Positions 6,155 to 31,021 of a stretch of DNA of 47,620 bases are shown piece by piece (position 1 is the first letter of the stretch; the number at the start of each line of letters is the position of its first letter). The DNA is taken from positions 239,836-287,455 of the IMG/VR virus record IMGVR_UViG_3300033076_000838; one strand, written 5' to 3'. A model generated the notes under the pieces. That model ran no database searches. It worked only from the letters and a program-made list of their open reading frames with translations, and had not been told where the DNA came from. Made by a program: the position numbers and the translations under genes. The DNA is from a virus (lineage: Duplodnaviria > Heunggongvirae > Uroviricota > Caudoviricetes).

Positions 6155-7146
6155 GCGGAATAACTAATCAAATTAAATTGTTAAAAGATTGCAATTGGGA
6201 AAATCCACAATCATTAGAAGAATTGGGATACATCTATTTCGGCCCATTACTTTTTAATTATTTTACTTGGTTAGTAACCGAAATTGGTGATTCTGAAAAA
6301 ATACTTTTTAATTCTAGAGAAGGATTATTTTTACAAGAGATTTACGAATTATTCAACACAAAATATAATCTACCGAAATCAGAATATTTTAAAACATCTC
6401 GTAGATTATCAACTATTGCATCTATAAAAACTGCCGGAGATATTTACCATACATTTACATTACATAGATATAATGGTAAATTATCAAGTTTATTAAAAGA
6501 TAGATTTGGTATTACACCGGATATTAAAAACGATGAAGATATAAATACGAATATTTCAATACCTAATTTAGATTTATATTTAGAAGATATTTTACAAAAT
6601 TCAAAAAAAGTTAGAGATGAATACCAAAAATATGTATTTAATGTTATTGGTGATTTTAAAAATGTTTTAATGGTTGATAGTGGTTATCAAGGAACTACAC
6701 AATACAATATTGAAAAAGCATACGGATTAAAATTTAAAGGCCGTTATATGATTTATAAAGGAAACCCTTTATTAGATGACGTGAAAGGTTTTTATGATTT
6801 TGAAAAAGGATTATTTGGAAACAATATTATATTTTTTGAATCCGTATTTACTGATAAAGTTGGTAGTTATGTGGATATAATAAATGGTGAATTTGTAAAT
6901 GAATCACCATCTGAAAATCAAAAATATTTTAGTGATAAAATTAAAATTGTAAATGGTATTAAAAAGTTTATTGTTGAAATGTTGAATACTAATTCAGATT
7001 TAACTGAAACCCTAAATAACATACCAGATATTATATTTGATTTGATGTGTAATAAAAAATATATTAAAAATGAATCTTTATTTGATTCATTTTATCACGA
7101 CAATTCATATACAAGAATTTTTGAAAAAAAAATAGATAGAAAATAA
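6151..7146 (+). CDS. Polysaccharide-locus protein resembling the C-terminal part of HAD-fused capsule/glycan enzymes
   Basis: FGPLL...LFNSREG...SRR and MVDSGYQGTTQ motifs recalled from glycan-locus HAD-like hydrolases. Confidence 0.5.
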   Translation: MSGITNQIKLLKDCNWENPQSLEELGYIYFGPLLFNYFTWLVTEIGDSEKILFNSREGLFLQEIYELFNTKYNLPKSEYFKTSRRLSTIASIKTAGDIYHTFTLHRYNGKLSSLLKDRFGITPDIKNDEDINTNISIPNLDLYLEDILQNSKKVRDEYQKYVFNVIGDFKNVLMVDSGYQGTTQYNIEKAYGLKFKGRYMIYKGNPLLDDVKGFYDFEKGLFGNNIIFFESVFTDKVGSYVDIINGEFVNESPSENQKYFSDKIKIVNGIKKFIVEMLNTNSDLTETLNNIPDIIFDLMCNKKYIKNESLFDSFYHDNSYTRIFEKKIDRK

Positions 7147-8336
7147 TGAATAATAAATTAAATTTTGTGTTTGGTAATAATGAAATAAATGGTAATGAAT
7201 TTTTTCATCAATCTGGACTATTTAATTATGTAATAAATAACCCAAATTTTGATAAAACATTTAATTATGAATTATCAAATAATCAAAATATTTTTTTATT
7301 AGAATGTAAAGAATCTTTACACGATTTTTATAAAAAAGATTTAACCAATAAATCAGTTTTAGATACATTACCAACACATATTATAGAATCTATAAAAAAT
7401 GGTAATACTAAAATTTTATTAGCATCAATAGCAGAAGCAACTGAAATCGTATCTGATTTTTTTAATAATTTACTTATAGAATTGAATAGATTTGAATTAA
7501 ACGAATCACATTTGATTTTATTAGATTCAAACCAAAATTTTTTAGATGTAGATACTAAATTTAAGATATTTACAACATTACATTTTATTGTAATTTGTAA
7601 TTATCAACCAAATGAACTAAATGATTTAAACTACATATCAGAATTACCTACAATTTTAGATGTATTGGAAATTGATAAAAGACCCAAACATTTCTTATGC
7701 TTAAATAGAAATTCACAACGTCCACATCGATACTATTTATCTTTATTTTTTGAAAAACATAAATTATATGATAAATCATTATTTTCATTACTCATGCCGT
7801 TGCATGAAAATAATTACAAAAAATTAGAATTTTTAGAAGAATATAAAAAATCCGTAGTATCAAAAATACCTATGGAATTAGATACCCAAAATAGATTGAA
7901 AACTATTGAAGGATTTCATGTAGGCAACACCTTTTTTAAACAACATTATTTAGAATCATATTTTCACATAGTTACTGAAACTTGCTATTCAGAGGGTCAA
8001 ATCTTTTTTACTGAAAAAATATTAAAACCTATTATGTGTTTACAGCCATTTATTGTAATATCATCTACTAATTATTTGAAAAAACTAAAAAGTTTAGGAT
8101 TTAAAACATTTGATTCCATATGGGATGAAAGTTATGATGATATTGAAGATAATGAAGAGCGATTACTTAAATTATTTGAAATAATTTTAAAAATAAGTGA
8201 GTGGTCTTTGGAAGAGTGTGAAAAAAACTATAAATCAGTTTTAGATATATGTATATATAATAGAGAACATCTATCTACATTTTGGAAAATAGATGAATTC
8301 AGTAATATTTTAAATTCAATAAAAAATGAATGGTAA
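7146..8336 (+). CDS. Putative glycosyltransferase (GT10-like), paralog 2
   Basis: HFLCLNR..RPHR, YFHIVTET, FFTEKILKPI..LQPFI, LGFKTF..WDESYD. Confidence 0.5.
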   Translation: MNNKLNFVFGNNEINGNEFFHQSGLFNYVINNPNFDKTFNYELSNNQNIFLLECKESLHDFYKKDLTNKSVLDTLPTHIIESIKNGNTKILLASIAEATEIVSDFFNNLLIELNRFELNESHLILLDSNQNFLDVDTKFKIFTTLHFIVICNYQPNELNDLNYISELPTILDVLEIDKRPKHFLCLNRNSQRPHRYYLSLFFEKHKLYDKSLFSLLMPLHENNYKKLEFLEEYKKSVVSKIPMELDTQNRLKTIEGFHVGNTFFKQHYLESYFHIVTETCYSEGQIFFTEKILKPIMCLQPFIVISSTNYLKKLKSLGFKTFDSIWDESYDDIEDNEERLLKLFEIILKISEWSLEECEKNYKSVLDICIYNREHLSTFWKIDEFSNILNSIKNEW

Positions 8337-9291
8337 AAAGGTTTTGATAACAGGTGCCAACGGATTGGTTGGTAATTATATGGTGGAAAAGTGTTTACAA
8401 AGAGGTGCAATCGTAACCGCAGTAGATATAGTAGAACCCACAAATCAATTAGAAAAGTACAAAGATAGTGATTATCAGTTTATCAAAGCTGATTTAAGAG
8501 AATTCAAAAATTGTAAAAGAGTTGTGGAAGGACAAGATGTTATTTTCCACATTGCAGGCGTAAAGGGTTCTCCAAAGAGAGCAGCAGAACAACCTGCCGA
8601 TTATTTTGTACCGATGTTGCAGTTTAATACCAATATGATGGAAGCTGCACGTTTAGAAAATGTAGAATGGTATGTTTATACATCAACGGTCGGAGTATAT
8701 CAACCGGCGGAAGTATTTTATGAAGATGATGTTTGGAAAACTTTCCCATCAGAAAAAGATAAGTACGCAGGATGGGCAAAAAGACTTGGAGAATTACAAG
8801 CAGAGGTTTATTCCGTATCGTACAATTGGAATAAAGCATCAATAGTAAGACCTGCAAACATTTATGGTAGACATGATAATTTTGGTCCAGAATCCACTGT
8901 CATTGCATCTTTAATCAAACGTTTATTTGGTGAGAAAGAACATCCATTAGTATGTTGGGGAGATGGTTCTCCAATTAGAGATTTTATCTATGCAGGAGAT
9001 GTGGCAGATGGAATTATTCAAGCATACGAACAAGGTATTACACAACCAATTAATTTAGGTAGTGGAACTGGTGTAACAATCAAAGAACTTGCAGAAACTT
9101 TGGTAGAAATCTACGAAGAAATGTATGAAGTTAAAGTTGATATTGAGTGGGACCCAACAAAACCAAATGGTGATGAAAAAAGATTGATGAGTACTGAAAG
9201 AGCAGAATCATTTGGAATCAAACAAAAAATATCCTTAAAGACAGGATTAAAACATACAATTGATTATTACTTAAACGAATACAACAAATAG
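8326..9291 (+). CDS. NDP-sugar epimerase/reductase (GDP-fucose synthase / GDP-mannose epimerase-like SDR)
   Basis: GANGLVG, RPANIYG, WGDGSPIRDFIY, NLGSG, WDPTKPNG. Catalytic motif is atypical (YAGWAK). Confidence 0.85.
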   Translation: MNGKKVLITGANGLVGNYMVEKCLQRGAIVTAVDIVEPTNQLEKYKDSDYQFIKADLREFKNCKRVVEGQDVIFHIAGVKGSPKRAAEQPADYFVPMLQFNTNMMEAARLENVEWYVYTSTVGVYQPAEVFYEDDVWKTFPSEKDKYAGWAKRLGELQAEVYSVSYNWNKASIVRPANIYGRHDNFGPESTVIASLIKRLFGEKEHPLVCWGDGSPIRDFIYAGDVADGIIQAYEQGITQPINLGSGTGVTIKELAETLVEIYEEMYEVKVDIEWDPTKPNGDEKRLMSTERAESFGIKQKISLKTGLKHTIDYYLNEYNK

Positions 9292-13096: not shown

Positions 13097-13105
13097 ATAT
13101 TTATA
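13097..13105 (+). promoter_or_regulatory. Putative late-promoter motif ATATTTATA (first intergenic copy of ATA(T/C)TTAT)
   Basis: Same motif at 17993, 20301, 22513, 27739, 28128, 31935, 32396, 36763, 40009, 40063, 43932, 44604, always intergenic and upstream of a + strand gene. Confidence 0.65.
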
Positions 13106-13128: not shown

Positions 13129-16100
13129 ATGAATGAATTAAGTAAATATCTGATGGAACAAATACTTTTAACCGAAGAAGAGTTAAAAGATTTTGTAGTA
13201 GTTTATTCAGGTAGATTTCAACCATTTCACAAAGGTCATTTTGCCACTTATCAAGGACTTGTAAAAAAGTTCGGTAAAGATAGAGTGTATATTGGAACGT
13301 CTAACAAAACCGATAATCAAAAATCACCATTTAATTTTAAAGAAAAGAAAACCATAATGACTAAAATGTTTGGTATTCCATCAAACAAAATAGTTGAGGT
13401 TAAAAATCCTTATGCTCCAACTGAAATACTTAAAAACTTCGATGAAACCACAACTGGTTTTATTACCGTCGTTGGTGAGAAGGATGAACAACGTTTAGGT
13501 GGTAAATACTTTGAAAAATATAAAGGTAAAATTGAATTTGGATATAAAGATAAAGGATATGTTTATACTTCTCCTGCGCAATCAAACGCAGTGAGTGGAA
13601 CTGATGTTCGTAATTGGTTAAGTAAAGGAACTGATGATGAAAAGAGAAACAATTTCTTAAAAGCATATCCAAAATTTGATGAAACAATCTATAAATTTAT
13701 TACACTTAAATTAGCTAAATTGGGAGAAGGATTTCCCGGTGGTGTTGGTGTAGGTTTATCTTTGCCGGGTGGATATATTAATGGTGCACCTAAACCGGAA
13801 GATGTAAAAAAGATGCGTAAGAAATTGGATAAACAAGATGATATAAACGAAGAGGTTAAATGGGTAGATAGTACATATGATAAATGTATGTTAGGTAAAT
13901 TACCTCTCTCACTCAATATTGTTAAAAAATTAGTAGACCCAATTAAAACAATTTCATTACATGTAACTGATGTTGAAAATTTACCAAAAGTTGCATCATT
14001 AGAAGGAACTAAAAAATCAATTTCTACATTTACACACACTACCAGATGGGGTAAACTTGTACAAGGTAAAGGATTACATACAAAAGGTGGTATAATTGTA
14101 GCATTATCAGGTTATGTTTTGGCACAAAGTATAATGGACTTGTGGACAGAACCTGATAAACAAGGTAGAAGATGGGTAAATCCTGGTACTGTCATAGCAA
14201 ATTTAGGAAGAGAGCAAGATGTAGTATTTAATTTTGCACCTGAATTAAAAAAGTATAAGGAAGAGTGGATGAAAAATATGTATGATAAACCGGCTACAAG
14301 TCAAGAAAAAGCTGAGTTTATAAAAAAATACTATGATGCTGCTGAAAAATATATGTTGAGTAAGAAAAAAGATTTTCAAGAGAAATATCTAAACTCAAAT
14401 GCATTATATTACGATTCAGATTGGAATGAGGTAGTCCTTACACAAATTAAAATAGAAAAGATTTTAGCTATTCCAAGTAATTGGAGTGATGATGAAACTG
14501 AAAACGAAAAAACGTTAAAACAACTTAAACAAAAATACAAAAATGTAGAAGTTGCAAAAAATCAAACTGATATTCAAAATTTCATCAAAAATAATGGTGG
14601 AACTATTAAAGAAGGTGTAAACGAAGACATTAATTTAGATGTTAAGATAGGTGATACTATCTTAATGGGTAAATTTAAAAATAAAAAAGTAGTTGTTAAA
14701 TCAATAGGTAAAGATGAACATGGAATGCCAACCATTAATGGTAAAAAAGCAACCACATTCAGAATCTTACCTAAACAAAATATATTTAAGGAATCTATGC
14801 AAACAAATGAATTAACATATTTAGATGAATTAGTAGGGGAATATTCTCATTTATTGGATTTATTAGAAGCAAATAGTGAAGATGATAAATACGTTCATAT
14901 TGGATATGGTAGATATAAAGAAAAAGGTAAAGAAAAAGACCAAAACGCACCTACATTTCAAAAAGATGATAGTGGAAAATATATCCAAACGAAAGGTGAT
15001 AAACCTGCTCAAAAAGAAAAACCAACTGGCCAAGCAATACAAGGTGCAGATATGTTTAAACACGACAAAAGTGTTAAACAAAATATTTTATCAAAACCTG
15101 CACAAATTGTAAAAAATAAAAAAGAAATTTTAAAAAGTAAAATTGTAAATTGGTCCGAAAAAGAAAAAGAATTTTTTAATAAAAATCAGGATAAACCAAA
15201 TTCAGAAACACGTAGAAGTATTGGTGAAACTTTAAGAGATAAAGCAAAAGGTGCTAGAAATGCTATTATTCATGGATTCAAACATGAAGCACATTTATTC
15301 AAATCAGCAGCAAAAGGTGTTGGTAATTTTGTAAGTGGAAAGGGAGTATCCGAAGAAGAAAAGAAAGCATTAATTGATGTTGGTAAAAAAGTAGTTATAG
15401 CAGGTTTATTAGGTGTTGCAACAGGTGGATTATCACATGGTGTTTTACCATTTGCACAACATCTTGCAGTTGAATTTGTTCCACATATAGTTGTAGAAAC
15501 AATTGCAATGGGTGCAGGAAAAGCAGCATTATTTGCAGATACTAACGAAGATGAAAGATTATTAAATGCATTTGTAGATAAACTTATTGATGGTATTGAA
15601 ACTATGGAAATACCTGATGATGTGATGGATAGTGCAATTGATTCATATAACGAACAACAAAATGTATCCGAAATGAGTATATCTCAATTGAATCAGATTG
15701 AGAAATATGCAGAAAAACAATTATCACCGGAAGATATTGAATTTACTAAACATTTCTTTGATAGAGTGAATGATGTTCGTAATGGTAAAGAAATATCAGA
15801 ACCAGAATTGACTGGGTTCTTTAAAAGATTATCTCGTCATAAAAAAGAATTTAAACAATTCTTAGATAAATACCAACAAATTGTTGTTAAAGATAAAAGA
15901 AACGATATAAACATTCCGTTTGTAAAACAAGCAAATCAAATTATTGCAAAGACGGTAATGAGAAAAGATGATTTTAAAACATCAAACCCAACTCTTGCTT
16001 TTGAAATTGCAGTACAAGTAGATAAAATACCCGGTGGATTGGCAAAAGGATTATCTTTATCTGATATTGCTAAAAAACATAATATAAGTGATACCGAAAT

Positions 16101-17976
16101 TACTGATGAATTCAAAAAAGGATATAAAGTAGAAAGAGAACATACTACCGATTCGGATGTTGCAAAAGAAATTGCTTTAGACCATTTATTTGAAGACCCA
16201 AAATATTATACAAAGTTAAGTTCAATAGAAGAAGCAGGAAGAGTTCCACAAAGTTTCAATTATGGAACAGGTTGGGATTATCATACTGCGATAGGAACTA
16301 ATCCAAACAAATATAGAGGAAAGACTAATTTCCCAACAAAAGATTCAGGACAACCAGATTTAGAAGATGAAGATGATGTAAATGAAATCGGTGTAGGAAC
16401 TGGTCAAAATGGTATAAGACCGGAATATCCAAAAGGTGATAAATTATCTGATAGAATGAAAAATGTTAAATCTGCAAGAACAAAAACTGATTCAGATGAA
16501 GAGTATCAATATAAAAAAATAAAAGAAGCATACACAAAAGGACAACTATTTGCAGGTAATCTTAAAATAGGTGGAGTTGTAGTTCCAATTGAGGTAGAAT
16601 TGGTTGGTGCAGATAATAAAAAAAATGTATTCATTACAAAGGTAATCAATATTGATAAAAAATATTTAAGTAAATTACCATCAAATGGTATATTAGAAAT
16701 ACCTGCTAGAATATTCAGATTTACAGGTGGATGGAGAAGGATAAAAACTCCATCGGTATTTGAAGGTATGATAAATGAAGGTGGTGCATACGGACATATG
16801 AACCATCCATTTGATACTGAAATCAATTTAACATTTGGTCAATTAAAAGATATTGTAAATCGTGCATTGGATGGTAATTTAGAATTGACTAGAGAAAAAA
16901 CTGATGGGCAGGCTTTAGCAATTAGTTGGGTGAATGGTAAATTAGTTGCAGCTCGTAATAAATCTCATTTAGCAAATAGAGGTGCAAATGCATTAGATAT
17001 TAGTGGTGTTGCTACTAAATTTGCTGGAAGAGGTGAATTGGAAAAAGCATACAATTTTGCAATGCAAGATTTAACTAAGGCTATTAAATCTCTTTCTAAT
17101 AAACAAAAAGAAAAGATTTTTAAGAATGGTGCTTGTTTTATGAATATAGAGGTAATTTATCCAACATCAGTAAATGTCATTCCTTACGGACAACCCCTAT
17201 TAGTATTTCACGGAACTATGGAGTATGATGAGAGTGGTAATGCAATTGGAGAAGATGCAGAAGCAGGTAGAATATTGGGTGGTATGATTAAACAAATTGA
17301 ACAACACATTCAGGACAATTATACATTACAAGGCCCACCAGTATTGAAATTACCGAAATCACAAGACCTATCATCTAAGAAACCAAAATATCTTGCTAAA
17401 ATTTCTAAATTACAAAAGGAATTTGGGTTGGGAGATACTGCAGGTGTTGCTGAATATCATCAAGCATGGTGGGAAAACTATGTAGATAAAAAATCACCAT
17501 CAATCTTAGATAATACTGCAAAAGTAGGATTAGTTAAACGATGGGCGTTTGGTGAAAAAGGTTTCCGTATTGATAAGAATACAATTAAAGATGAAAAAAC
17601 TCTTGCATGGGCAACTAAGATAGATAAAGAAGACCAAAAAGGTATTGCGAAGGATAATCTAATGAAATTTGAAGATATATTTTTAGGTGTAGGTGCAGAG
17701 GTATTATCATTCACATCATCAGTATTGACGGTAAATCCAGATAAGGCTGTTAGGGATATGAAAAAGAGATTAGACCAAACAATCAAAGATGTAGAAGCAA
17801 GTGGAGACCCTAAAAAGATAGAAAAATTAAAATTAGAATTAAAAAGATTAAACGCAATCGGTGGTCCATCTAAAATTGTTCCAATTGAAGGTATTGTGTT
17901 TATATACAATGGTCAAACATTCAAATTGACCGGTGCATTTGCATCATTAAATCAGCTTTTGGGTATTTTTTACTAA
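13129..17976 (+). CDS. 1615-aa multi-domain putative head-packaged polyprotein: HxGH cytidylyltransferase-like, ART-like, RNase-like, DUF5661-like and KxDG ligase-like domains
   Basis: GRFQPFHKGH (13210); LHVT/SIST/WNEVVL; IEFTKHFFDR; GYKVEREHT..IALDHL.EDPKYYTKL; EKTDG (16894) and EGIVF (17887). Domains are separated by hydrophobic-x-E linkers. Confidence 0.7.
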   Translation: MNELSKYLMEQILLTEEELKDFVVVYSGRFQPFHKGHFATYQGLVKKFGKDRVYIGTSNKTDNQKSPFNFKEKKTIMTKMFGIPSNKIVEVKNPYAPTEILKNFDETTTGFITVVGEKDEQRLGGKYFEKYKGKIEFGYKDKGYVYTSPAQSNAVSGTDVRNWLSKGTDDEKRNNFLKAYPKFDETIYKFITLKLAKLGEGFPGGVGVGLSLPGGYINGAPKPEDVKKMRKKLDKQDDINEEVKWVDSTYDKCMLGKLPLSLNIVKKLVDPIKTISLHVTDVENLPKVASLEGTKKSISTFTHTTRWGKLVQGKGLHTKGGIIVALSGYVLAQSIMDLWTEPDKQGRRWVNPGTVIANLGREQDVVFNFAPELKKYKEEWMKNMYDKPATSQEKAEFIKKYYDAAEKYMLSKKKDFQEKYLNSNALYYDSDWNEVVLTQIKIEKILAIPSNWSDDETENEKTLKQLKQKYKNVEVAKNQTDIQNFIKNNGGTIKEGVNEDINLDVKIGDTILMGKFKNKKVVVKSIGKDEHGMPTINGKKATTFRILPKQNIFKESMQTNELTYLDELVGEYSHLLDLLEANSEDDKYVHIGYGRYKEKGKEKDQNAPTFQKDDSGKYIQTKGDKPAQKEKPTGQAIQGADMFKHDKSVKQNILSKPAQIVKNKKEILKSKIVNWSEKEKEFFNKNQDKPNSETRRSIGETLRDKAKGARNAIIHGFKHEAHLFKSAAKGVGNFVSGKGVSEEEKKALIDVGKKVVIAGLLGVATGGLSHGVLPFAQHLAVEFVPHIVVETIAMGAGKAALFADTNEDERLLNAFVDKLIDGIETMEIPDDVMDSAIDSYNEQQNVSEMSISQLNQIEKYAEKQLSPEDIEFTKHFFDRVNDVRNGKEISEPELTGFFKRLSRHKKEFKQFLDKYQQIVVKDKRNDINIPFVKQANQIIAKTVMRKDDFKTSNPTLAFEIAVQVDKIPGGLAKGLSLSDIAKKHNISDTEITDEFKKGYKVEREHTTDSDVAKEIALDHLFEDPKYYTKLSSIEEAGRVPQSFNYGTGWDYHTAIGTNPNKYRGKTNFPTKDSGQPDLEDEDDVNEIGVGTGQNGIRPEYPKGDKLSDRMKNVKSARTKTDSDEEYQYKKIKEAYTKGQLFAGNLKIGGVVVPIEVELVGADNKKNVFITKVINIDKKYLSKLPSNGILEIPARIFRFTGGWRRIKTPSVFEGMINEGGAYGHMNHPFDTEINLTFGQLKDIVNRALDGNLELTREKTDGQALAISWVNGKLVAARNKSHLANRGANALDISGVATKFAGRGELEKAYNFAMQDLTKAIKSLSNKQKEKIFKNGACFMNIEVIYPTSVNVIPYGQPLLVFHGTMEYDESGNAIGEDAEAGRILGGMIKQIEQHIQDNYTLQGPPVLKLPKSQDLSSKKPKYLAKISKLQKEFGLGDTAGVAEYHQAWWENYVDKKSPSILDNTAKVGLVKRWAFGEKGFRIDKNTIKDEKTLAWATKIDKEDQKGIAKDNLMKFEDIFLGVGAEVLSFTSSVLTVNPDKAVRDMKKRLDQTIKDVEASGDPKKIEKLKLELKRLNAIGGPSKIVPIEGIVFIYNGQTFKLTGAFASLNQLLGIFY

Positions 17977-22559: not shown

Positions 22560-23432
22560 ATGAGAAAAATAAAACATTCGAAATTCAAAAATACAGGGTT
22601 CCTATTTGAGTTATTGACACGTCAAATAACTTTGGAGATTTTGAACAATGCACCGGAGGAAAAAGCCAAAAAAATTGTACAAGAATTTTTTGGTGGGAAA
22701 ACTGAAATGTCTAAAGAATTGCGTTTATTCAATTTATTGGTAAACGAAAAGTATAATTCTGAAAGTAAAGCAGAAAAGTATATTGATGCTATTATAGAAA
22801 CTCGTACAAAATTAGATGAGAATAAACTTGCAAGAGAAAAATATAATCTTGTGAAAGCAATCAAAGAGAATTTTGAATTAGATTCATTCTTATCATCACC
22901 AGTATCTAACTATAAAGTTTTAGCATCAGTGCATAAAATTTTTGAAGCAAAGATACAAGATGTAACTAATGTTAAAGAAGTATTTGATGCTAAATTAACG
23001 TTGATAGAACATATTTCTACATCAACTCCATCTTTAAAACAAAAAGAAGATAAGTTGTTAGAAGATTATAGAAAACAAGAGAAAGATTTAAGATTACTTA
23101 CATATAAAATTCTTGTTGAAACATTTAACAAGAAATATACAAACTTAAATGATGACCAAAAGGATATTTTGAGAGAGTATATTAACAACGTAAACAACAC
23201 TTCTAAATTTGGTGAATATTTTGATGCTAAATTAAAGGTTGTTGTAACTGAATTACACAAACTTTATTCCGAAGTTAATGATAAAATCACAAAAATTAAG
23301 TTGAAAGAAACTATTAATGTTATGAAACAACAAAAAATTGGTAAAAAAGTTACTGATGAACAAGTTTCAGCGTTGATGATGTCATATGAATTAATAAAGG
23401 AAATAAAAAATGTTAAAGAAAGAAAATCTTAA
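22560..23432 (+). CDS. Helical head-module hypothetical protein
   Basis: Long ORF between portal and protease with late motif and AAGGA SD. Confidence 0.6.
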   Translation: MRKIKHSKFKNTGFLFELLTRQITLEILNNAPEEKAKKIVQEFFGGKTEMSKELRLFNLLVNEKYNSESKAEKYIDAIIETRTKLDENKLAREKYNLVKAIKENFELDSFLSSPVSNYKVLASVHKIFEAKIQDVTNVKEVFDAKLTLIEHISTSTPSLKQKEDKLLEDYRKQEKDLRLLTYKILVETFNKKYTNLNDDQKDILREYINNVNNTSKFGEYFDAKLKVVVTELHKLYSEVNDKITKIKLKETINVMKQQKIGKKVTDEQVSALMMSYELIKEIKNVKERKS

Positions 23433-24108
23433 ATCATATATAGACGAACTTATTAAAGAAGTTGAAGAGGAGTTGAAAGAATCCACTACCACTGGTGGTG
23501 TCGATGGCTATCAAACTCCTTTTGCTTTTTCTGGTAAGAGAAAACAAGATAAAGCAAAAGCCGATTCTAATATAAAAGTGACTGGATATACAAAGGTTAA
23601 AGACATTGATGAATCAACAACTCCATCTGATATTATAAAAGATTTAGATAAGGTAAGAACTGATTTAATTAAAAAAGTAGATGTTTTAATTGCTAAAAAG
23701 AAAAAACTTTATTCTAATGTAGATATTGAATCACCGATGAGTGCAGATGAAAAACAATTAGATAAAGATATACAAAGTATATTTTCACAAATACAAAGTT
23801 TGATTCAACAAAAAAGAAAAATTCAAAAAGAATCAGTAAACGAAGGTAAATCAAAAAGACCTGTAAATCGTTGGTTAGAATTAAAGAATGATGAATCAAT
23901 GCATGCAAATAAAAAGTTGGCAGTAGGATTGAGAGAATTGAAACAGCAATTAAGTGAGGTTGAAAAGTTTTTCCGTTGGTATAATCAAATTAAAACGATG
24001 AATGAATTATCATCTGATTCGTTTTGGAAAAGAACAAACACTCATATTTATAAAATAAAGGAAAGATTAATCAACATCGCAAAAACAATACAGGAGATAG
24101 AAAAATAA
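23410..24108 (+). CDS. Putative internal head protein with cassette structure
   Basis: Segments separated by LKE|S, IDE|S and ESVNE|G; SD AAGGA. Confidence 0.55.
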   Translation: MLKKENLKSYIDELIKEVEEELKESTTTGGVDGYQTPFAFSGKRKQDKAKADSNIKVTGYTKVKDIDESTTPSDIIKDLDKVRTDLIKKVDVLIAKKKKLYSNVDIESPMSADEKQLDKDIQSIFSQIQSLIQQKRKIQKESVNEGKSKRPVNRWLELKNDESMHANKKLAVGLRELKQQLSEVEKFFRWYNQIKTMNELSSDSFWKRTNTHIYKIKERLINIAKTIQEIEK

Positions 24109-24320: not shown

Positions 24321-24372
24321 TTCGCCTAACTATTTTTAGATTAAATAATAAAAGAAACGTTTGGGGAGTATA

Positions 24373-24966
24373 ATGAAAAATTTATTAATTGAGACTAACC
24401 TATTTGAAGGTAAAATCAACGAAGATGCATCAGGTAGAACACTGGTTAAAGGTGTTTTACAAAGAGCTGTTGCTGAAAATCAGAATGGTAGAGTGTATCC
24501 GTTAGAAATCTTACAAAGAGAAGCAAAGAAATATGAAACTCTTATTAAGGAAAGACGTGCATTAGGAGAATTAGACCATCCAGATTCATCAGTAATCAAC
24601 TTAAAGAACGTTTCCCATAATGTAAGAGAAATATGGTGGGAAGGTAATGATTTATGCGGGACAGTTGAAATTTTACCAACCCCATCTGGTAATATATTAA
24701 AAGAATTATTAAGAGCAGGAATACTTTTAGGTATTTCTTCTCGTGGTATGGGTTCAGTAACTCCTATGGGAGAAGGTAAGGTGAAAGTTGGTGAAGATTT
24801 CGAACTAATTGGTTGGGATTTTGTATCTAACCCATCTACTCATGGTGCATTTATGACACCGATGAATGAATCCGTAAACAAACAATTACAAGAACAAGCG
24901 ATAGTATGTGGTGATTATTGTAAGGCACAAGACCTTATGAGAGAAATCATTACTGAATTATCATAA
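24373..24966 (+). CDS. Prohead protease (T4 gp21-like, peptidase S77/U9 type)
   Basis: NQNGRVYP, ALGELDHP, VSH, GISSRGMGS, WDFVSNPS. Start moved to ATG 24373, which has GGGGAG upstream. Confidence 0.95.
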   Translation: MKNLLIETNLFEGKINEDASGRTLVKGVLQRAVAENQNGRVYPLEILQREAKKYETLIKERRALGELDHPDSSVINLKNVSHNVREIWWEGNDLCGTVEILPTPSGNILKELLRAGILLGISSRGMGSVTPMGEGKVKVGEDFELIGWDFVSNPSTHGAFMTPMNESVNKQLQEQAIVCGDYCKAQDLMREIITELS

Positions 24967-26682: not shown

Positions 26683-27726
26683 ATGATACGTTTATCAAAG
26701 ATAGTAAATGAGGGTGAAGAACCTAAAAAATTCTCTAATGAAGTTAAAAAACATTTCTTAGAAATCGTTTCTACATACAACAAGTATCAAGAAATGATGG
26801 ATAGAAAATCTGATATTGCTGAAATAGCAGAAGTATTAGGTGGAATTACTGAAGCAGCAAGAGAATTAGCTGTAAATGAATCCGATGATTGGTTTGATGC
26901 ACAGACGGTTAAGAGAAACATGAGTGAATTAGATAAGTTGGGTAAACAATTTGATAAAGTAGCAATAGAAGCTAAGAATTTAGACCAAAGATTACATGGA
27001 TTATACGAAGATATGGGACATATCCTATCTCGTTACTATAAAATAGGTGAAATTACCGAAGAGGAAATGAAAGGTCGTTTAGGAATGAACGAAGCATCAC
27101 CTTGTTGGGATGGATACAAACAAGTTGGGATGAAAATGAAGGATGGTAAAGAAGTTCCTAATTGTGTTCCAACATCCGAATCCGTAAAGGAATCAAAAGA
27201 TTGTGGATGTAATTCGGTAAACGAAGCAATAAAACATTTTATCCATGTAGAAACTCCAAAAGATATAACATCAAAATCAGTTATATCACAAATTACAACA
27301 TTAGCTAAAAAAGGTATTCGTTCAAATGAAATTGGATTGAATATGCATTTTGTTGGTAATGAAAAAGCTGCAGTTGATGCTTTTCAAAAAGTTAAGAATA
27401 AAGTATATTTTTCATTACACAATAACGAATCAGTAAACGAATCATCATTTCAAAAAGGTAAAACATATGGTGGAACTAAATGTGAAGGTGGATGTTTCTT
27501 AGGTAAAAATGGTTTAATGAAAATAATCAAAATTTCAAAAGAAAATCCAAATAACACATTTTTATTTAGACAAGATAATTTTTCAGGATTACAACCACAT
27601 TTTATTAAGAATGGTGTAATTGGTAAAGCAACTACACTTAATCCATCGTATGATTTAGAAAGAAATAAAGTAAGAAATTTAAAAATAGGTAATGATGTTG
27701 TTTTAGCTATTCAATTATTTGAATAA
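26683..27726 (+). CDS. Putative internal head protein, multi-cassette (includes CWDGYKQVGMK...VPNCVP module)
   Basis: N-terminus MIRLSKIVNE; linkers MNE|A, ESVKE|S, SVNE|A, NESVNE|S; SD AGGAG. Confidence 0.55.
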   Translation: MIRLSKIVNEGEEPKKFSNEVKKHFLEIVSTYNKYQEMMDRKSDIAEIAEVLGGITEAARELAVNESDDWFDAQTVKRNMSELDKLGKQFDKVAIEAKNLDQRLHGLYEDMGHILSRYYKIGEITEEEMKGRLGMNEASPCWDGYKQVGMKMKDGKEVPNCVPTSESVKESKDCGCNSVNEAIKHFIHVETPKDITSKSVISQITTLAKKGIRSNEIGLNMHFVGNEKAAVDAFQKVKNKVYFSLHNNESVNESSFQKGKTYGGTKCEGGCFLGKNGLMKIIKISKENPNNTFLFRQDNFSGLQPHFIKNGVIGKATTLNPSYDLERNKVRNLKIGNDVVLAIQLFE

Positions 27727-29401: not shown

Positions 29402-31021
29402 ATGGCAAATTTTAATTTATCTAAACTTATGGAAGGCAAGAACCCACAATCAGTAATGTTGGCTGAAACACGTCAATTGAAGAACAAGTGGGAAAAAACT
29501 GGTCTTTTAGAAGGTTTAAAAGAAAGAGAGCAATCTCAAGTAGCAGTTCTATTAGAGAACCAAGCTAAACAATTATTGGATGAAGCAACAGCAACTGGTA
29601 CTTCTGCTGGTTCAGAAGAGTGGTCTGGTGTTGCATTACCATTGGTAAGACGTATTTTTGGTGAAATTGCAGCGAAAGAATTCGTTTCAGTTCAACCAAT
29701 GAACTTACCATCAGGTCTTATCTTCTATCTAGATTTCAAATACGGAACAGCAGTACAAGGTGCTACTAAGTTTAATGGTAAATCATTATTCGGTGGTAAT
29801 GGTACTTCTAACTTCGATGGTGACTTCGGTAGAACTAAGGCAGCAGTAAACGGTCTTTATGGTGAAGGAAGATATTCTTACACAATCAACGACCAATCAG
29901 TATCAGTATCAACTGGTAACCAAACATATGCAACTGCATCATGGGCAGAAGTAAAGTATGATTCTGCATTATCTTCATCAGTAGCAGCAGGTACATTAGC
30001 AAAAATTACAATTGCTAAAGCAAATATCAACTCTGCGGCTGATTTCGATGCTGTACGTTCATTCCACATCTCTGCATCAGGTTTCTCTGCAGCAGATACT
30101 TTCTACCCAGCACACTCTAGCTATGATGGTACTAACGTAACATTCTTCGCTAAAGTTGCGACAGTAGCTACACCAACTGCATTGACAGTTAAGTATTCTT
30201 TGGCTCCAACTTCTACAACAAGAGGTGATTTCGAAGATGCTAACCCAACAGAACCAGCAACTGACATCGCTATTCCAGAAGTTGATTTGGAATTACGTTC
30301 AGAGGCTATCGTTGCTAAGACTCGTAAGTTAAAAGCAGTGTGGACTCCTGAATTGGCACAAGATTTAAATGCTTACCACTCAATTGATGCAGAAGCTGAA
30401 TTAACTTCTATGTTATCTGAATATATCTCATTAGAGATTGACTTAGAAATCTTAGATATGTTAAAAGCTAACGCTTTAACAACTGAATACTGGTCAGCAA
30501 CAATCGGTGAAGAGTACAACTCTACAGCAGGTACTTGGTCAGCAGGTTCTTCTTCATTAGCATACCAAAAAAATACTTGGTTCCAAACTTTGGGTACTAA
30601 GATTAACAAAGTATCTAATAAGATTCATCAATTAACATTGAGAGGTGGTGCAAACTTCATCGTTGTATCTCCAGATATCGCAACTATCTTAGAATCAATT
30701 CCTGGATTCGTAGTGAACGCTGATAAAGATGCAGCTTCATTCGCAGCTGGTGTATCTCAAGTAGGTTCATTAGCATCTCGTTACACAGTCTACAAAAACC
30801 CATACATGACTTCTAACGAAATCTTGTTAGGTTTCAAAGGTTCTAGTTTCTTAGAGACTGGTGCTGTGTACGCTCCATACGTTCCATTGATTATGACTCC
30901 ATTAGTGTACGACCCAACTAACTTCACGCCAAGACGTGGTGTTATGACTCGTTACGCTAAGAAGATGGTCCGCCCAGAATTCTATGGCAAGATTTATGTT
31001 AAAGATTTGGCTTCAATCTAA
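29402..31021 (+). CDS. Major capsid protein (T4 gp23-like)
   Basis: LLENQ, PLVRR, VQPMNLPSGLIF, AKTRKLKAVWTPELAQDL.AYH..DAEAEL, YAPYVPL, GVMTRY. Predicted maturation site LLDE61|A, analogous to T4 gp23 E65|A66. Confidence 0.97.
   Translation: MANFNLSKLMEGKNPQSVMLAETRQLKNKWEKTGLLEGLKEREQSQVAVLLENQAKQLLDEATATGTSAGSEEWSGVALPLVRRIFGEIAAKEFVSVQPMNLPSGLIFYLDFKYGTAVQGATKFNGKSLFGGNGTSNFDGDFGRTKAAVNGLYGEGRYSYTINDQSVSVSTGNQTYATASWAEVKYDSALSSSVAAGTLAKITIAKANINSAADFDAVRSFHISASGFSAADTFYPAHSSYDGTNVTFFAKVATVATPTALTVKYSLAPTSTTRGDFEDANPTEPATDIAIPEVDLELRSEAIVAKTRKLKAVWTPELAQDLNAYHSIDAEAELTSMLSEYISLEIDLEILDMLKANALTTEYWSATIGEEYNSTAGTWSAGSSSLAYQKNTWFQTLGTKINKVSNKIHQLTLRGGANFIVVSPDIATILESIPGFVVNADKDAASFAAGVSQVGSLASRYTVYKNPYMTSNEILLGFKGSSFLETGAVYAPYVPLIMTPLVYDPTNFTPRRGVMTRYAKKMVRPEFYGKIYVKDLASI

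Follow-up and report, generated by a model that had tools for sequence, protein, structure and literature searches.

The 47.6-kb window analysed here (47,620 nucleotides, positions 239,836 to 287,455 of the tailed-phage record IMGVR_UViG_3300033076_000838) is the final part of a 287,455-bp genome with 31% G+C. It contains an open reading frame at 13129–17976 on the + strand that stays open over 1615 codons and encodes a 1615-residue protein of about ten modules, labelled P0001. We propose that this gene probably encodes a capsid-targeted, polyvalent cargo precursor that is cut by the S77 prohead protease after a glutamate at each module junction, the resulting enzymes being injected with the DNA. 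According to this proposal, a leader of 10–16 residues would direct the precursor to the prohead's scaffolding core, where a gp21-type S77 protease would cut after the junction Glu, as in the capsid propeptide. The freed NMNAT-like transferase, RNase-like and RNA-ligase-like domains, together with several unknowns, would be retained in the head and would pass into the cell along with the DNA. A cargo polyprotein had been suggested in an initial annotation made from the letters of the DNA and a list of its reading frames, and the comparisons described below support that interpretation in part.

Modules of P0001 are exchanged between relatives

By word-index search, over 2,000 relatives of 929–2,132 residues were retrieved; their two ends are conserved and their middle is variable. 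When ten P0001 modules were used as phmmer queries against 263 family members, 125 architectures were obtained, with changes in module order: residues 242–495 stand directly before the ligase domain in many members, and DUF5661 precedes the small beta module in others. Many stretches of the relatives have no counterpart in P0001, and relatives add a GNAT domain or, in about 50 of the 263, a module with an HExxH motif (HEMVH or HELVH, zincin-like; e.g. residues ~692–871 of member P0058), possibly an embedded peptidase of the kind known from classical polyvalent proteins. The coverage of P0001 by BLAST of 119 relatives changes in sharp steps, with the ends of high-scoring segment pairs clustering at ~200, 225–245, 490–500, 545–560, 565–580, 840–850, 955–960, 1033, 1130–1140 and 1205–1215. 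These clusters coincide with the x-x-E sites listed in the initial annotation, every one of which was recovered. Judged from these alignments, the P0001 modules are exchangeable cassettes that are gained, lost and reordered at such sites, and an invariant architecture was not seen. The parts of P0001 are given below; h-x-E denotes hydrophobic-x-Glu, with Glu as P1, and a slash marks the cut proposed after it.

13129..13176, + strand: N-terminal leader, residues 1–16 (MNELSKYLME/QILLTE/), with two tandem h-x-E sites; kept in most family members
13177..13728, + strand: NMNAT-like HxGH nucleotidyltransferase, residues 17–200, ending KLGE/; matches to Pfam CTP_transf_like and to PDB NMNAT/NadM
13729..13851, + strand: Gly/Pro- and Lys-rich spacer, residues 201–241, ending DINE/; in only some relatives
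13852..14613, + strand: mobile module M2, residues 242–495, ending TIKE/
14614..14793, + strand: GVNE/ spacer and small beta-rich module, residues 496–555, ending IFKE/; varied contexts
14794..15672, + strand: residues 556–848, ending NVSE/; helical piece (ending DLLE/), Lys-rich stretch and Gly-rich hydrophobic hairpin module
15673..16005, + strand: RNase-like module, residues 849–959, ending LAFE/; phrog_23027, weak RegB similarity
16006..16233, + strand: DUF5661 module, residues 960–1035, ending SIEE/; Pfam match; predicted local distance difference test score (pLDDT) of the model 84–96
16234..16764, + strand: three small modules, residues 1036–1086 (DVNE/), 1087–1133 (KIKE/) and 1134–1212 (SVFE/)
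16765..17976, + strand: GMINE/ spacer and RNA-ligase-fold domain, residues 1218–1615, starting GGAYGHMNHPFD; AlphaFold2 model; EKxDG

Most of the 119 closest relatives have the small beta-rich module, which occurs in many different settings but always with h-x-E flanks. The region of residues 556–848 has homology breakpoints at ~560–580 and 840–850, and the three small modules of residues 1036–1212 come and go independently among relatives, their junctions carrying the motif.

A conserved glutamate marks the module junctions

In an all-against-all BLAST of 120 members, a breakpoint was scored where both proteins continue with no colinear match after it. Among 4,174 breakpoints, 11.5% fell exactly on the Glu of an h-x-E, compared with 1.8% of random positions, and 41% lay at most 3 residues from such a Glu, compared with 12%. 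Junctions were also set independently of the motif, from adjacent phmmer envelopes (321 distinct segments, mean 19 residues), with equal-length segments within modules of the same proteins serving as the control. The motif occurred in 281 of the 321 junction segments (88%) vs. 18.7% ± 2.0% of the intra-module controls, a comparison of related sequences to which no formal probability is attached, the effect being seen over many neighbour combinations. Control motifs were not enriched at junctions (h-x-Q was level, while h-x-D, h-x-K and h-x-N were depleted), and h-x-E was found on 29 of the 30 commonest module-pair types, the exception being the transition from RNase to DUF5661.

Junction sites have Ile, Leu or Val at P3 in 92% of cases, Asn at P2 in 31% and Gly or Ser at P1′ in 40%; h-x-E sites inside modules prefer Phe or Val at P3 and Lys at P1′. 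Among aligned homologs, 81% retain the junction Glu and 3.6% have Asp in its place, the corresponding figures being 57% and 17% for internal h-x-E sites and 62% and 9% for all other Glu of P0001. Four junction residues are 96–100% kept amid variable neighbours: E200 (96% of aligned homologs, regardless of the following module), E241 (98%), E959 (98%, despite a variable P3) and E1217, which together with its P3 is kept in 119 of 119 close homologs. The junction Glu is thus constrained above the Glu of folded domains, with Asp avoided and the linkers free to vary, as a site for a Glu-specific protease predicts. As far as these alignments go, neither linker composition nor decaying leader remnants predict this pattern.

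The motif could alternatively be a DNA-level recombination scar, i.e. a microhomology used in shuffling with no protease involved, or P0001 could be processed by an embedded HExxH peptidase. A separate annotation had recorded that the 15-mer GAATCAGTAAACGAA may recur unchanged where other head genes have their junctions, which would suit a scar, and the HExxH module of the relatives would suit self-processing. P0001, however, has neither an HExxH motif nor any match to a peptidase family, so that the embedded peptidase of polyvalent proteins was not found in it. Against a scar, the constraint lies at the protein level, on Ile, Leu or Val at P3 and Glu at P1 with P2 and P4 free, and the motif equals that of the capsid propeptide, a canonical substrate of gp21-type proteases. 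We consider both variants very improbable.

The capsid propeptide and scaffold-like proteins carry the same sites

The initial annotation had placed a gp21-like protease at 24373 and had noted the same sites in the scaffold and the capsid leader. Profile searches and site counts bear this out for the following features.

24361..24966, + strand: gp21-type prohead serine protease, the proposed processing enzyme; Pfam Peptidase_S77, E 1e-27; phrog_207
29402..29584, + strand: major capsid propeptide, residues 1–61, with six h-x-E sites, ending LLDE/A; Gp23 domain from residue 72
26683..27726, + strand: scaffold/core-like protein with leader MIRLSKIVNE/ and five [VIM]NE sites

The protease gene lies ~6 kb downstream of the P0001 gene, and the N-terminus of the protease itself carries LIE/, LFE/ and INE/. 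The capsid gene (29402–31021) matches Pfam Gp23 with E 7e-78, and the gp23 propeptide of T4 is removed by the head protease (PMC5694885). In the scaffold-like proteins 26683 and 28285, [VIM]NE occurs at 1.4 per 100 residues (1.44 in 26683) vs. 0.10 genome-wide (14-fold), while P0001 has four internal copies (241, 499, 1086 and 1217), every one at a junction. By this comparison, the cassette boundaries carry a conserved [I/L/V]-x-Glu, often [V/I]-N-E followed by Gly or Ser, which is the motif of the capsid propeptide and the scaffold. The window thus holds an S77 protease together with capsid and scaffold proteins bearing the same sites, as in T4-type head cargo.

Such a likeness to scaffold would also fit P0001 being an assembly or core component that is cut by the prohead protease and not injected, its fragments leaving like scaffold peptides or staying to organise the DNA. 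The sites of P0001 resemble those of the scaffold-like proteins in density and flavour, most core proteins of T4 are degraded and expelled (PMC5694885), and part of one head-module gene is itself a module in relatives:

23410..24108, + strand: head-module gene, residues 64–174 of whose product match, by BLAST, an internal polyprotein module in 24 other phages (identity up to 85%, e.g. P0056 residues 1514–1595)

Well-folded enzymes with invariant EKxDG and GRFQPFHKGH are, however, poorly suited to a disposable scaffold, and T4 enzymes of the same grammar (Alt) are injected (PMC5512222). A role confined to the core seems to us quite unlikely.

Leaders and stand-alone cassettes

The leader MNELSKYLME of P0001 is spaced as the capsid targeting sequence of T4, MKTYQEFIAE, which is removed by one cut, the cargo staying in the head (PMC8442874, PMC3012670). 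P0001 therefore has the N-terminal leader of 10–20 residues ending in h-x-Glu that is characteristic of T4-type head cargo, and this leader is common to head-module genes. A tight pattern, M-x(1,2)-L-x-x-h-h-x-E, which was defined post hoc, after examples had been seen, starts ten genes of the genome compared with 0.39 ± 0.66 expected from shuffled N-termini (1,000 shuffles, maximum 4). These genes are P0001 and nine others, and three of the ten (20330, 25439 and 26683) lie in the head module, while two more encode the kinase and the 2H phosphoesterase listed next.

Elsewhere in the genome, proteins that are polyprotein modules in other phages are encoded on their own (genome coordinates):

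96709..97587: P-loop kinase, leader MSLKSIITE/; internal polyprotein module in other phages
133078..133650: 2H phosphoesterase with weak Acb1 similarity, leader MIKLKNLIKE/; internal polyprotein module elsewhere
87354..87881: HAD phosphatase, leader MISRSLFTE/ (looser, outside the tight pattern); polyprotein module elsewhere
196274..197083: 269-residue protein starting MDTKLNE/C; polyprotein module elsewhere

The ligase-like domain also occurs alone, and 13 of 15 stand-alone proteins have just a leader of 10–37 residues, in most cases with the motif at its end, before GG..GH (e.g. MITFRQYISE/GG and MKTFLDFSKQTLVE/GG); one such gene, on a T4-like contig, adjoins uvsX and a gene for a DnaB-type (gp41-like) helicase. 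A 639-residue protein of Microcystis phage Mel-JY01 has the leader MGKLINILLSE/ and a transferase joined directly to the ligase by IIAE/GG, and in gp190 of Flavobacterium phage immuto a leader precedes DUF5661, which IEE/ links to the RNase-like module, so that these two modules stand in the reverse of their order in P0001. Since the same modules stand behind a leader or behind a junction, these appear to be two interchangeable ways to encode one cargo, and we regard this interchangeability as the strongest comparative argument that P0001 is a string of cargo proteins.

Members of the 196274–197083 family (also P0205, P0185 and P0228) share an invariant Glu-Cys start (LNE/C, IDE/C, VDE/C or IEE/C) followed by an invariant GKNRDR. 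A Pfam search with this module family gave zero matches, and a profile search against PDB sequences gave a best E of 0.8. If the family were an N-terminal-nucleophile hydrolase, a cut after Glu would expose its catalytic Cys, which we offer as an idea only.

A run of consecutive small genes at 83864–87881 of the genome has leader-like starts (MNEVQVKE, MKLQNLLNE, MNILFNILKE, MITLKSIIEE and MISRSLFTE); one encodes the HAD phosphatase, another (350 residues) has a module common to 39 polyproteins, and the run could be an 'internal protein' gene cluster. In immuto, gp191 (841 residues, locus 6756–9281) has the leader MKKLIRIVE/ and doubled sites (MNE/SVNE/ and LKE/SLNE/); it lies upstream of the terminase with three genes between and looks like a polyprotein-like head protein of a cultured phage. 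The RNase-like module is also carried by gp159 of phage phiM12, which is not annotated as a virion protein and hence provides no proteomic support.

Domain assignments within P0001

Residues 25–162 match Pfam CTP_transf_like with 33 bits (cut-off 21), contain the signature GRFQPFHKGH and matched NMNAT chains in the PDB with a best E of 8e-5. By signature and profile, the N-terminal domain is an NMNAT/NadM-type (archaeal/NadM NMN adenylyltransferase-like) HxGH nucleotidyltransferase. DUF5661 was detected at residues 979–1035 with E 2e-14 in the whole protein and 2e-16 in the isolated module; a literature search on this family found nothing. Residues 843–955 match phrog_23027, a family of unknown function, with E 3e-11. 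The similarity of this module to REGB_T4 (E 0.0017, 18.9 bits) is under the family cut-off of 27 and the model has a pLDDT of 42–59, so the RNase-like label for residues 849–959 is weak and serves as a lead only. With isolated modules and E up to 10, Pfam gave nothing credible for residues 201–245, 242–499, 556–850, 1034–1135 and 1132–1215 or for the ligase domain. Among the labels proposed initially, the HxGH transferase, DUF5661 and the KxDG ligase-like domain stood, the RNase-like one is no more than a lead, and 'ART-like' (residues 242–495) and 'SH3/KOW-like', with no family match and a poor model, are unconfirmed.

The Lys-rich part of residues 581–848 (14869–15672) is probably disordered and is followed by the Gly-rich hydrophobic hairpin (GLLGVATGGLSHGV...), which is even richer in Gly in relatives. 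This hairpin module could be membrane-active.

The C-terminal domain has an RNA ligase fold

The C-terminal 398 residues were modelled by AlphaFold2 from an alignment of 69 diverse homologs with a mean pLDDT of 93.9. The best Foldseek matches of the model were all RNA ligases (Rnl3, T4 Rnl1, Trl1-LIG and T4 Rnl2), with probability up to 0.98 and E of only 1.5e-3. In an independent all-against-all aligner (VIA), the nine best matches were RNA or tRNA ligases and the tenth a DNA ligase (Z 7.0–8.6 over ~190 residues); the fungal Trl1-LIG was among the tied top structure matches. Identity to solved ligases is 8–17%. Ligase motif I, E44-K45-x-D47-G48 in domain numbering, is invariant in the 69 sequences, as is an EG..F...K element near the C-terminus. 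According to the model, the domain has an RNA-ligase/covalent nucleotidyltransferase fold with motif I, and ligase activity is predicted. The GMINE spacer is disordered in the same model (residues 1–3 have pLDDT <50, and the first ten average 52).

An exhaustive domain search found the ligase-like domain in 1,730 clusters at 50% identity, 568 of them with E <1e-30. In nearly all of the matches listed, it is C-terminal and follows 0 to ~1,500 other residues, and h-h-x-E/GG precedes it in 85 of 112 representatives.

This domain raises the question of an uncut cytoplasmic multi-domain RNA repair/NAD enzyme, built in the style of Trl1 or Pnkp/Rnl, in which the junction motifs are leftover leaders of once-separate genes. 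Such an enzyme would account for the ligase fold with Trl1-LIG among the tied top matches, for the P-loop kinase, HAD phosphatase and 2H phosphoesterase added by relatives, which are the classic healing enzymes, and for a sub-lineage that has no N-terminal leader. The late context of the gene could be explained by analogy with T4 RNA ligase 1, which acts late in morphogenesis as well. Leftovers would decay, yet the junction Glu is more conserved than intra-module Glu and Asp is avoided. Moreover, a good many of the modules are small and have no connection with RNA repair, their order is freely permuted, and stand-alone versions bear cleavable-looking leaders. We judge an uncut enzyme to be unlikely.

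Observations that weigh against a processed cargo precursor

Several points speak against the processed cargo precursor that we prefer. We found neither proteomics nor biochemistry on this phage or on other members of the family, and the combination of kinase, phosphatase/2H and ligase modules would also suit a Trl1-like repair enzyme that stays uncut. The total number of h-x-E in P0001 is at chance level (32 observed vs. 31.9 expected from composition), so that only the placement of the sites counts as signal. At the junction between the RNase and DUF5661 modules, P3 is Ala, Ser or Thr (A/S/T-x-E), with the Glu kept in 98%. Before the GG of the ligase-like domain, 27 of the 112 representatives have Cys (14), Met (11) or Ala (2) in place of Glu, in LL-x-C or ELLLM contexts preceding GGxxGH (e.g. 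P0135, P0136, P0156, P0166, P0170 and P0176); such proteins may have an internal start, be cut by a protease of different specificity or not be cleaved at all. The sub-lineage mentioned above, exemplified by P0058, starts directly at the transferase domain. Enrichment of the leader was obtained with the post hoc, tight pattern, and a loose pattern is not enriched genome-wide (24 vs. 18.2). Instead of the S77 protease, the HExxH module carried by about 50 relatives could do the processing.

Conservation and model confidence are both low in the inter-module stretches that hold the sites, in agreement with the linker position assumed in the initial annotation. In a model of residues 190–1225 (1036 residues), 12 of 13 junction Glu fall in segments with pLDDT <50 and ten in coil, a test of little power and weakly informative given that the model is poor (mean pLDDT 48.6, with 61% of residues below 50). 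This model was excluded from fold searches.

Genomic context and late-type promoter motif

The P0001 gene is flanked by a sugar-modification gene block and by the head module, which comprises a large terminase (18696), a T4-type portal (20764), the S77 protease and the Gp23-type capsid. A late motif had been noted initially and was found upstream of P0001 as it is for other structural genes:

13098..13105, + strand: late-type promoter motif TATTTATA, 31 nucleotides 5′ of the P0001 start codon

On the + strand, the same octamer stands 28–46 nucleotides upstream of genes 20330, 22560, 31964, 32435, 40098 and 44636; its positions in the window are 13098, 20302, 22514, 31928, 32397, 40058 and 44605, and it is often embedded in ATATTTATATA. 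Genome-wide there are 54 copies on the + strand vs. 17 of the complement. Read on the opposite strand, the octamer gives the late box of T4, TATAAATA, and it is likely to be a late promoter element of this phage. Because it is common to the upstream regions of structural genes, the P0001 gene is expected to be co-expressed with head and tail genes, and on this basis it is the first gene of the head module, transcribed from a putative late-type promoter.

The order polyprotein, terminase, T4 portal, S77 protease is kept in two distant contigs (133 and 243 kb). In Mel-JY01, what was seen is a polyprotein homolog upstream of the large terminase, not the full order. The late portal–terminase context known for polyvalent proteins is thus present in the window and in three further loci. 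A megablast of the P0001 gene against the phage collection returned zero matches, and the relatives in this collection come from uncultured phages and Mel-JY01 only.

Relation to known injected proteins

P0001 shares with the T4 internal proteins IPI–III and Alt a short leader in which positions 4, 7 and 8 are hydrophobic and position 10 is Glu, the use of one tag for varied anti-host cargo (PMC3012670, PMC8442874, PMC5694885), an encoded S77 gp21-type protease and a cleavage-type motif of hydrophobic-x-Glu. The T4 cargo proteins are, however, single modules cut once (Alt twice), whereas P0001, as read from its sequence, has about ten modules with a site at each joint, reshuffled between phages.

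Polyvalent proteins, in the parts of the account by Iyer, Burroughs, Anand, de Souza and Aravind (2017, PMC5512222) considered here, are multi-domain injected effectors encoded beside packaging genes, with release proposed to occur by embedded peptidases. Like them, with their two to fifteen unrelated domains, P0001 combines unrelated, in part enzymatic, domains in one polypeptide, has mosaic architectures and portal/terminase neighbours and is predicted to be delivered with the DNA, and some of its relatives carry GNAT and HExxH modules. It differs in having sites for a trans-acting prohead protease and a T4-type leader instead of embedded peptidases. A bracket of NMNAT-like and RNA-ligase-like domains was not found in those passages of PMC5512222.

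The ejection proteins of phiKZ and SPN3US are likewise head-internal and cut after Glu by a gp21-related (S80) protease, with several cuts possible (PMC10052503, PMC5694885). In these phages, however, the protease family differs, the motif is small-x-Glu, and the identified cuts, save self-cleavage of the protease, remove N-terminal propeptides and do not separate folded enzymes. With RNA repair enzymes (T4 Pnkp with Rnl1/Rnl2; fungal and plant Trl1) the family shares the ligase nucleotidyltransferase fold and motif I and, in relatives, kinase, phosphatase and 2H modules, while an N-terminal GGxxGHxxHPFD element and a long helical insert are particular to the P0001 ligase-like family. Our literature search found no paper on arrays of folded enzymes separated by prohead-protease sites, nor on the NMNAT-like/RNA-ligase-like bracket.

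Possible role of the cargo

The sequence-level predictions of the initial annotation held; its description of the modules as 'unrelated effectors' did not hold as well, in that modules lean family-wide to RNA end-healing and sealing and to NAD chemistry. Considering this enrichment, the job of the cargo would most likely be to pre-empt RNA-cleaving or NAD-depleting host defences at infection. More tentatively, and with rather less confidence than in the precursor itself, we raise the possibility that T4-related phages infecting aquatic bacteria have a general plug-in cargo system. In it, any module with the prohead-protease site on its flanks would either join an array bracketed by the NMNAT-like and RNA-ligase-like domains or be encoded singly with a leader of 10 residues, and the protease would free the modules as an injected RNA-repair/NAD kit that disarms defences before phage expression. 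A cut might, in addition, switch some modules on, as when the invariant Cys of the 196274–197083 family becomes exposed.

Phage proteins that are packaged and injected act before phage gene expression and are thus a first line against host immunity, yet beyond T4, P1, N4 and phiKZ-like phages few examples are known. If our reading is true, a leader, [I/L/V]-x-Glu joints and an adjoining S77 gene would make the injected proteome readable for thousands of uncultured T4-like phages, and the release of polyvalent proteins that have no peptidase of their own would be explained. It would also mean that RNA repair and NAD enzymes are delivered by the virion as counter-defence, and the system would serve as a natural model for packing multiple foreign proteins, all encoded by a single gene, into T4-type capsids.

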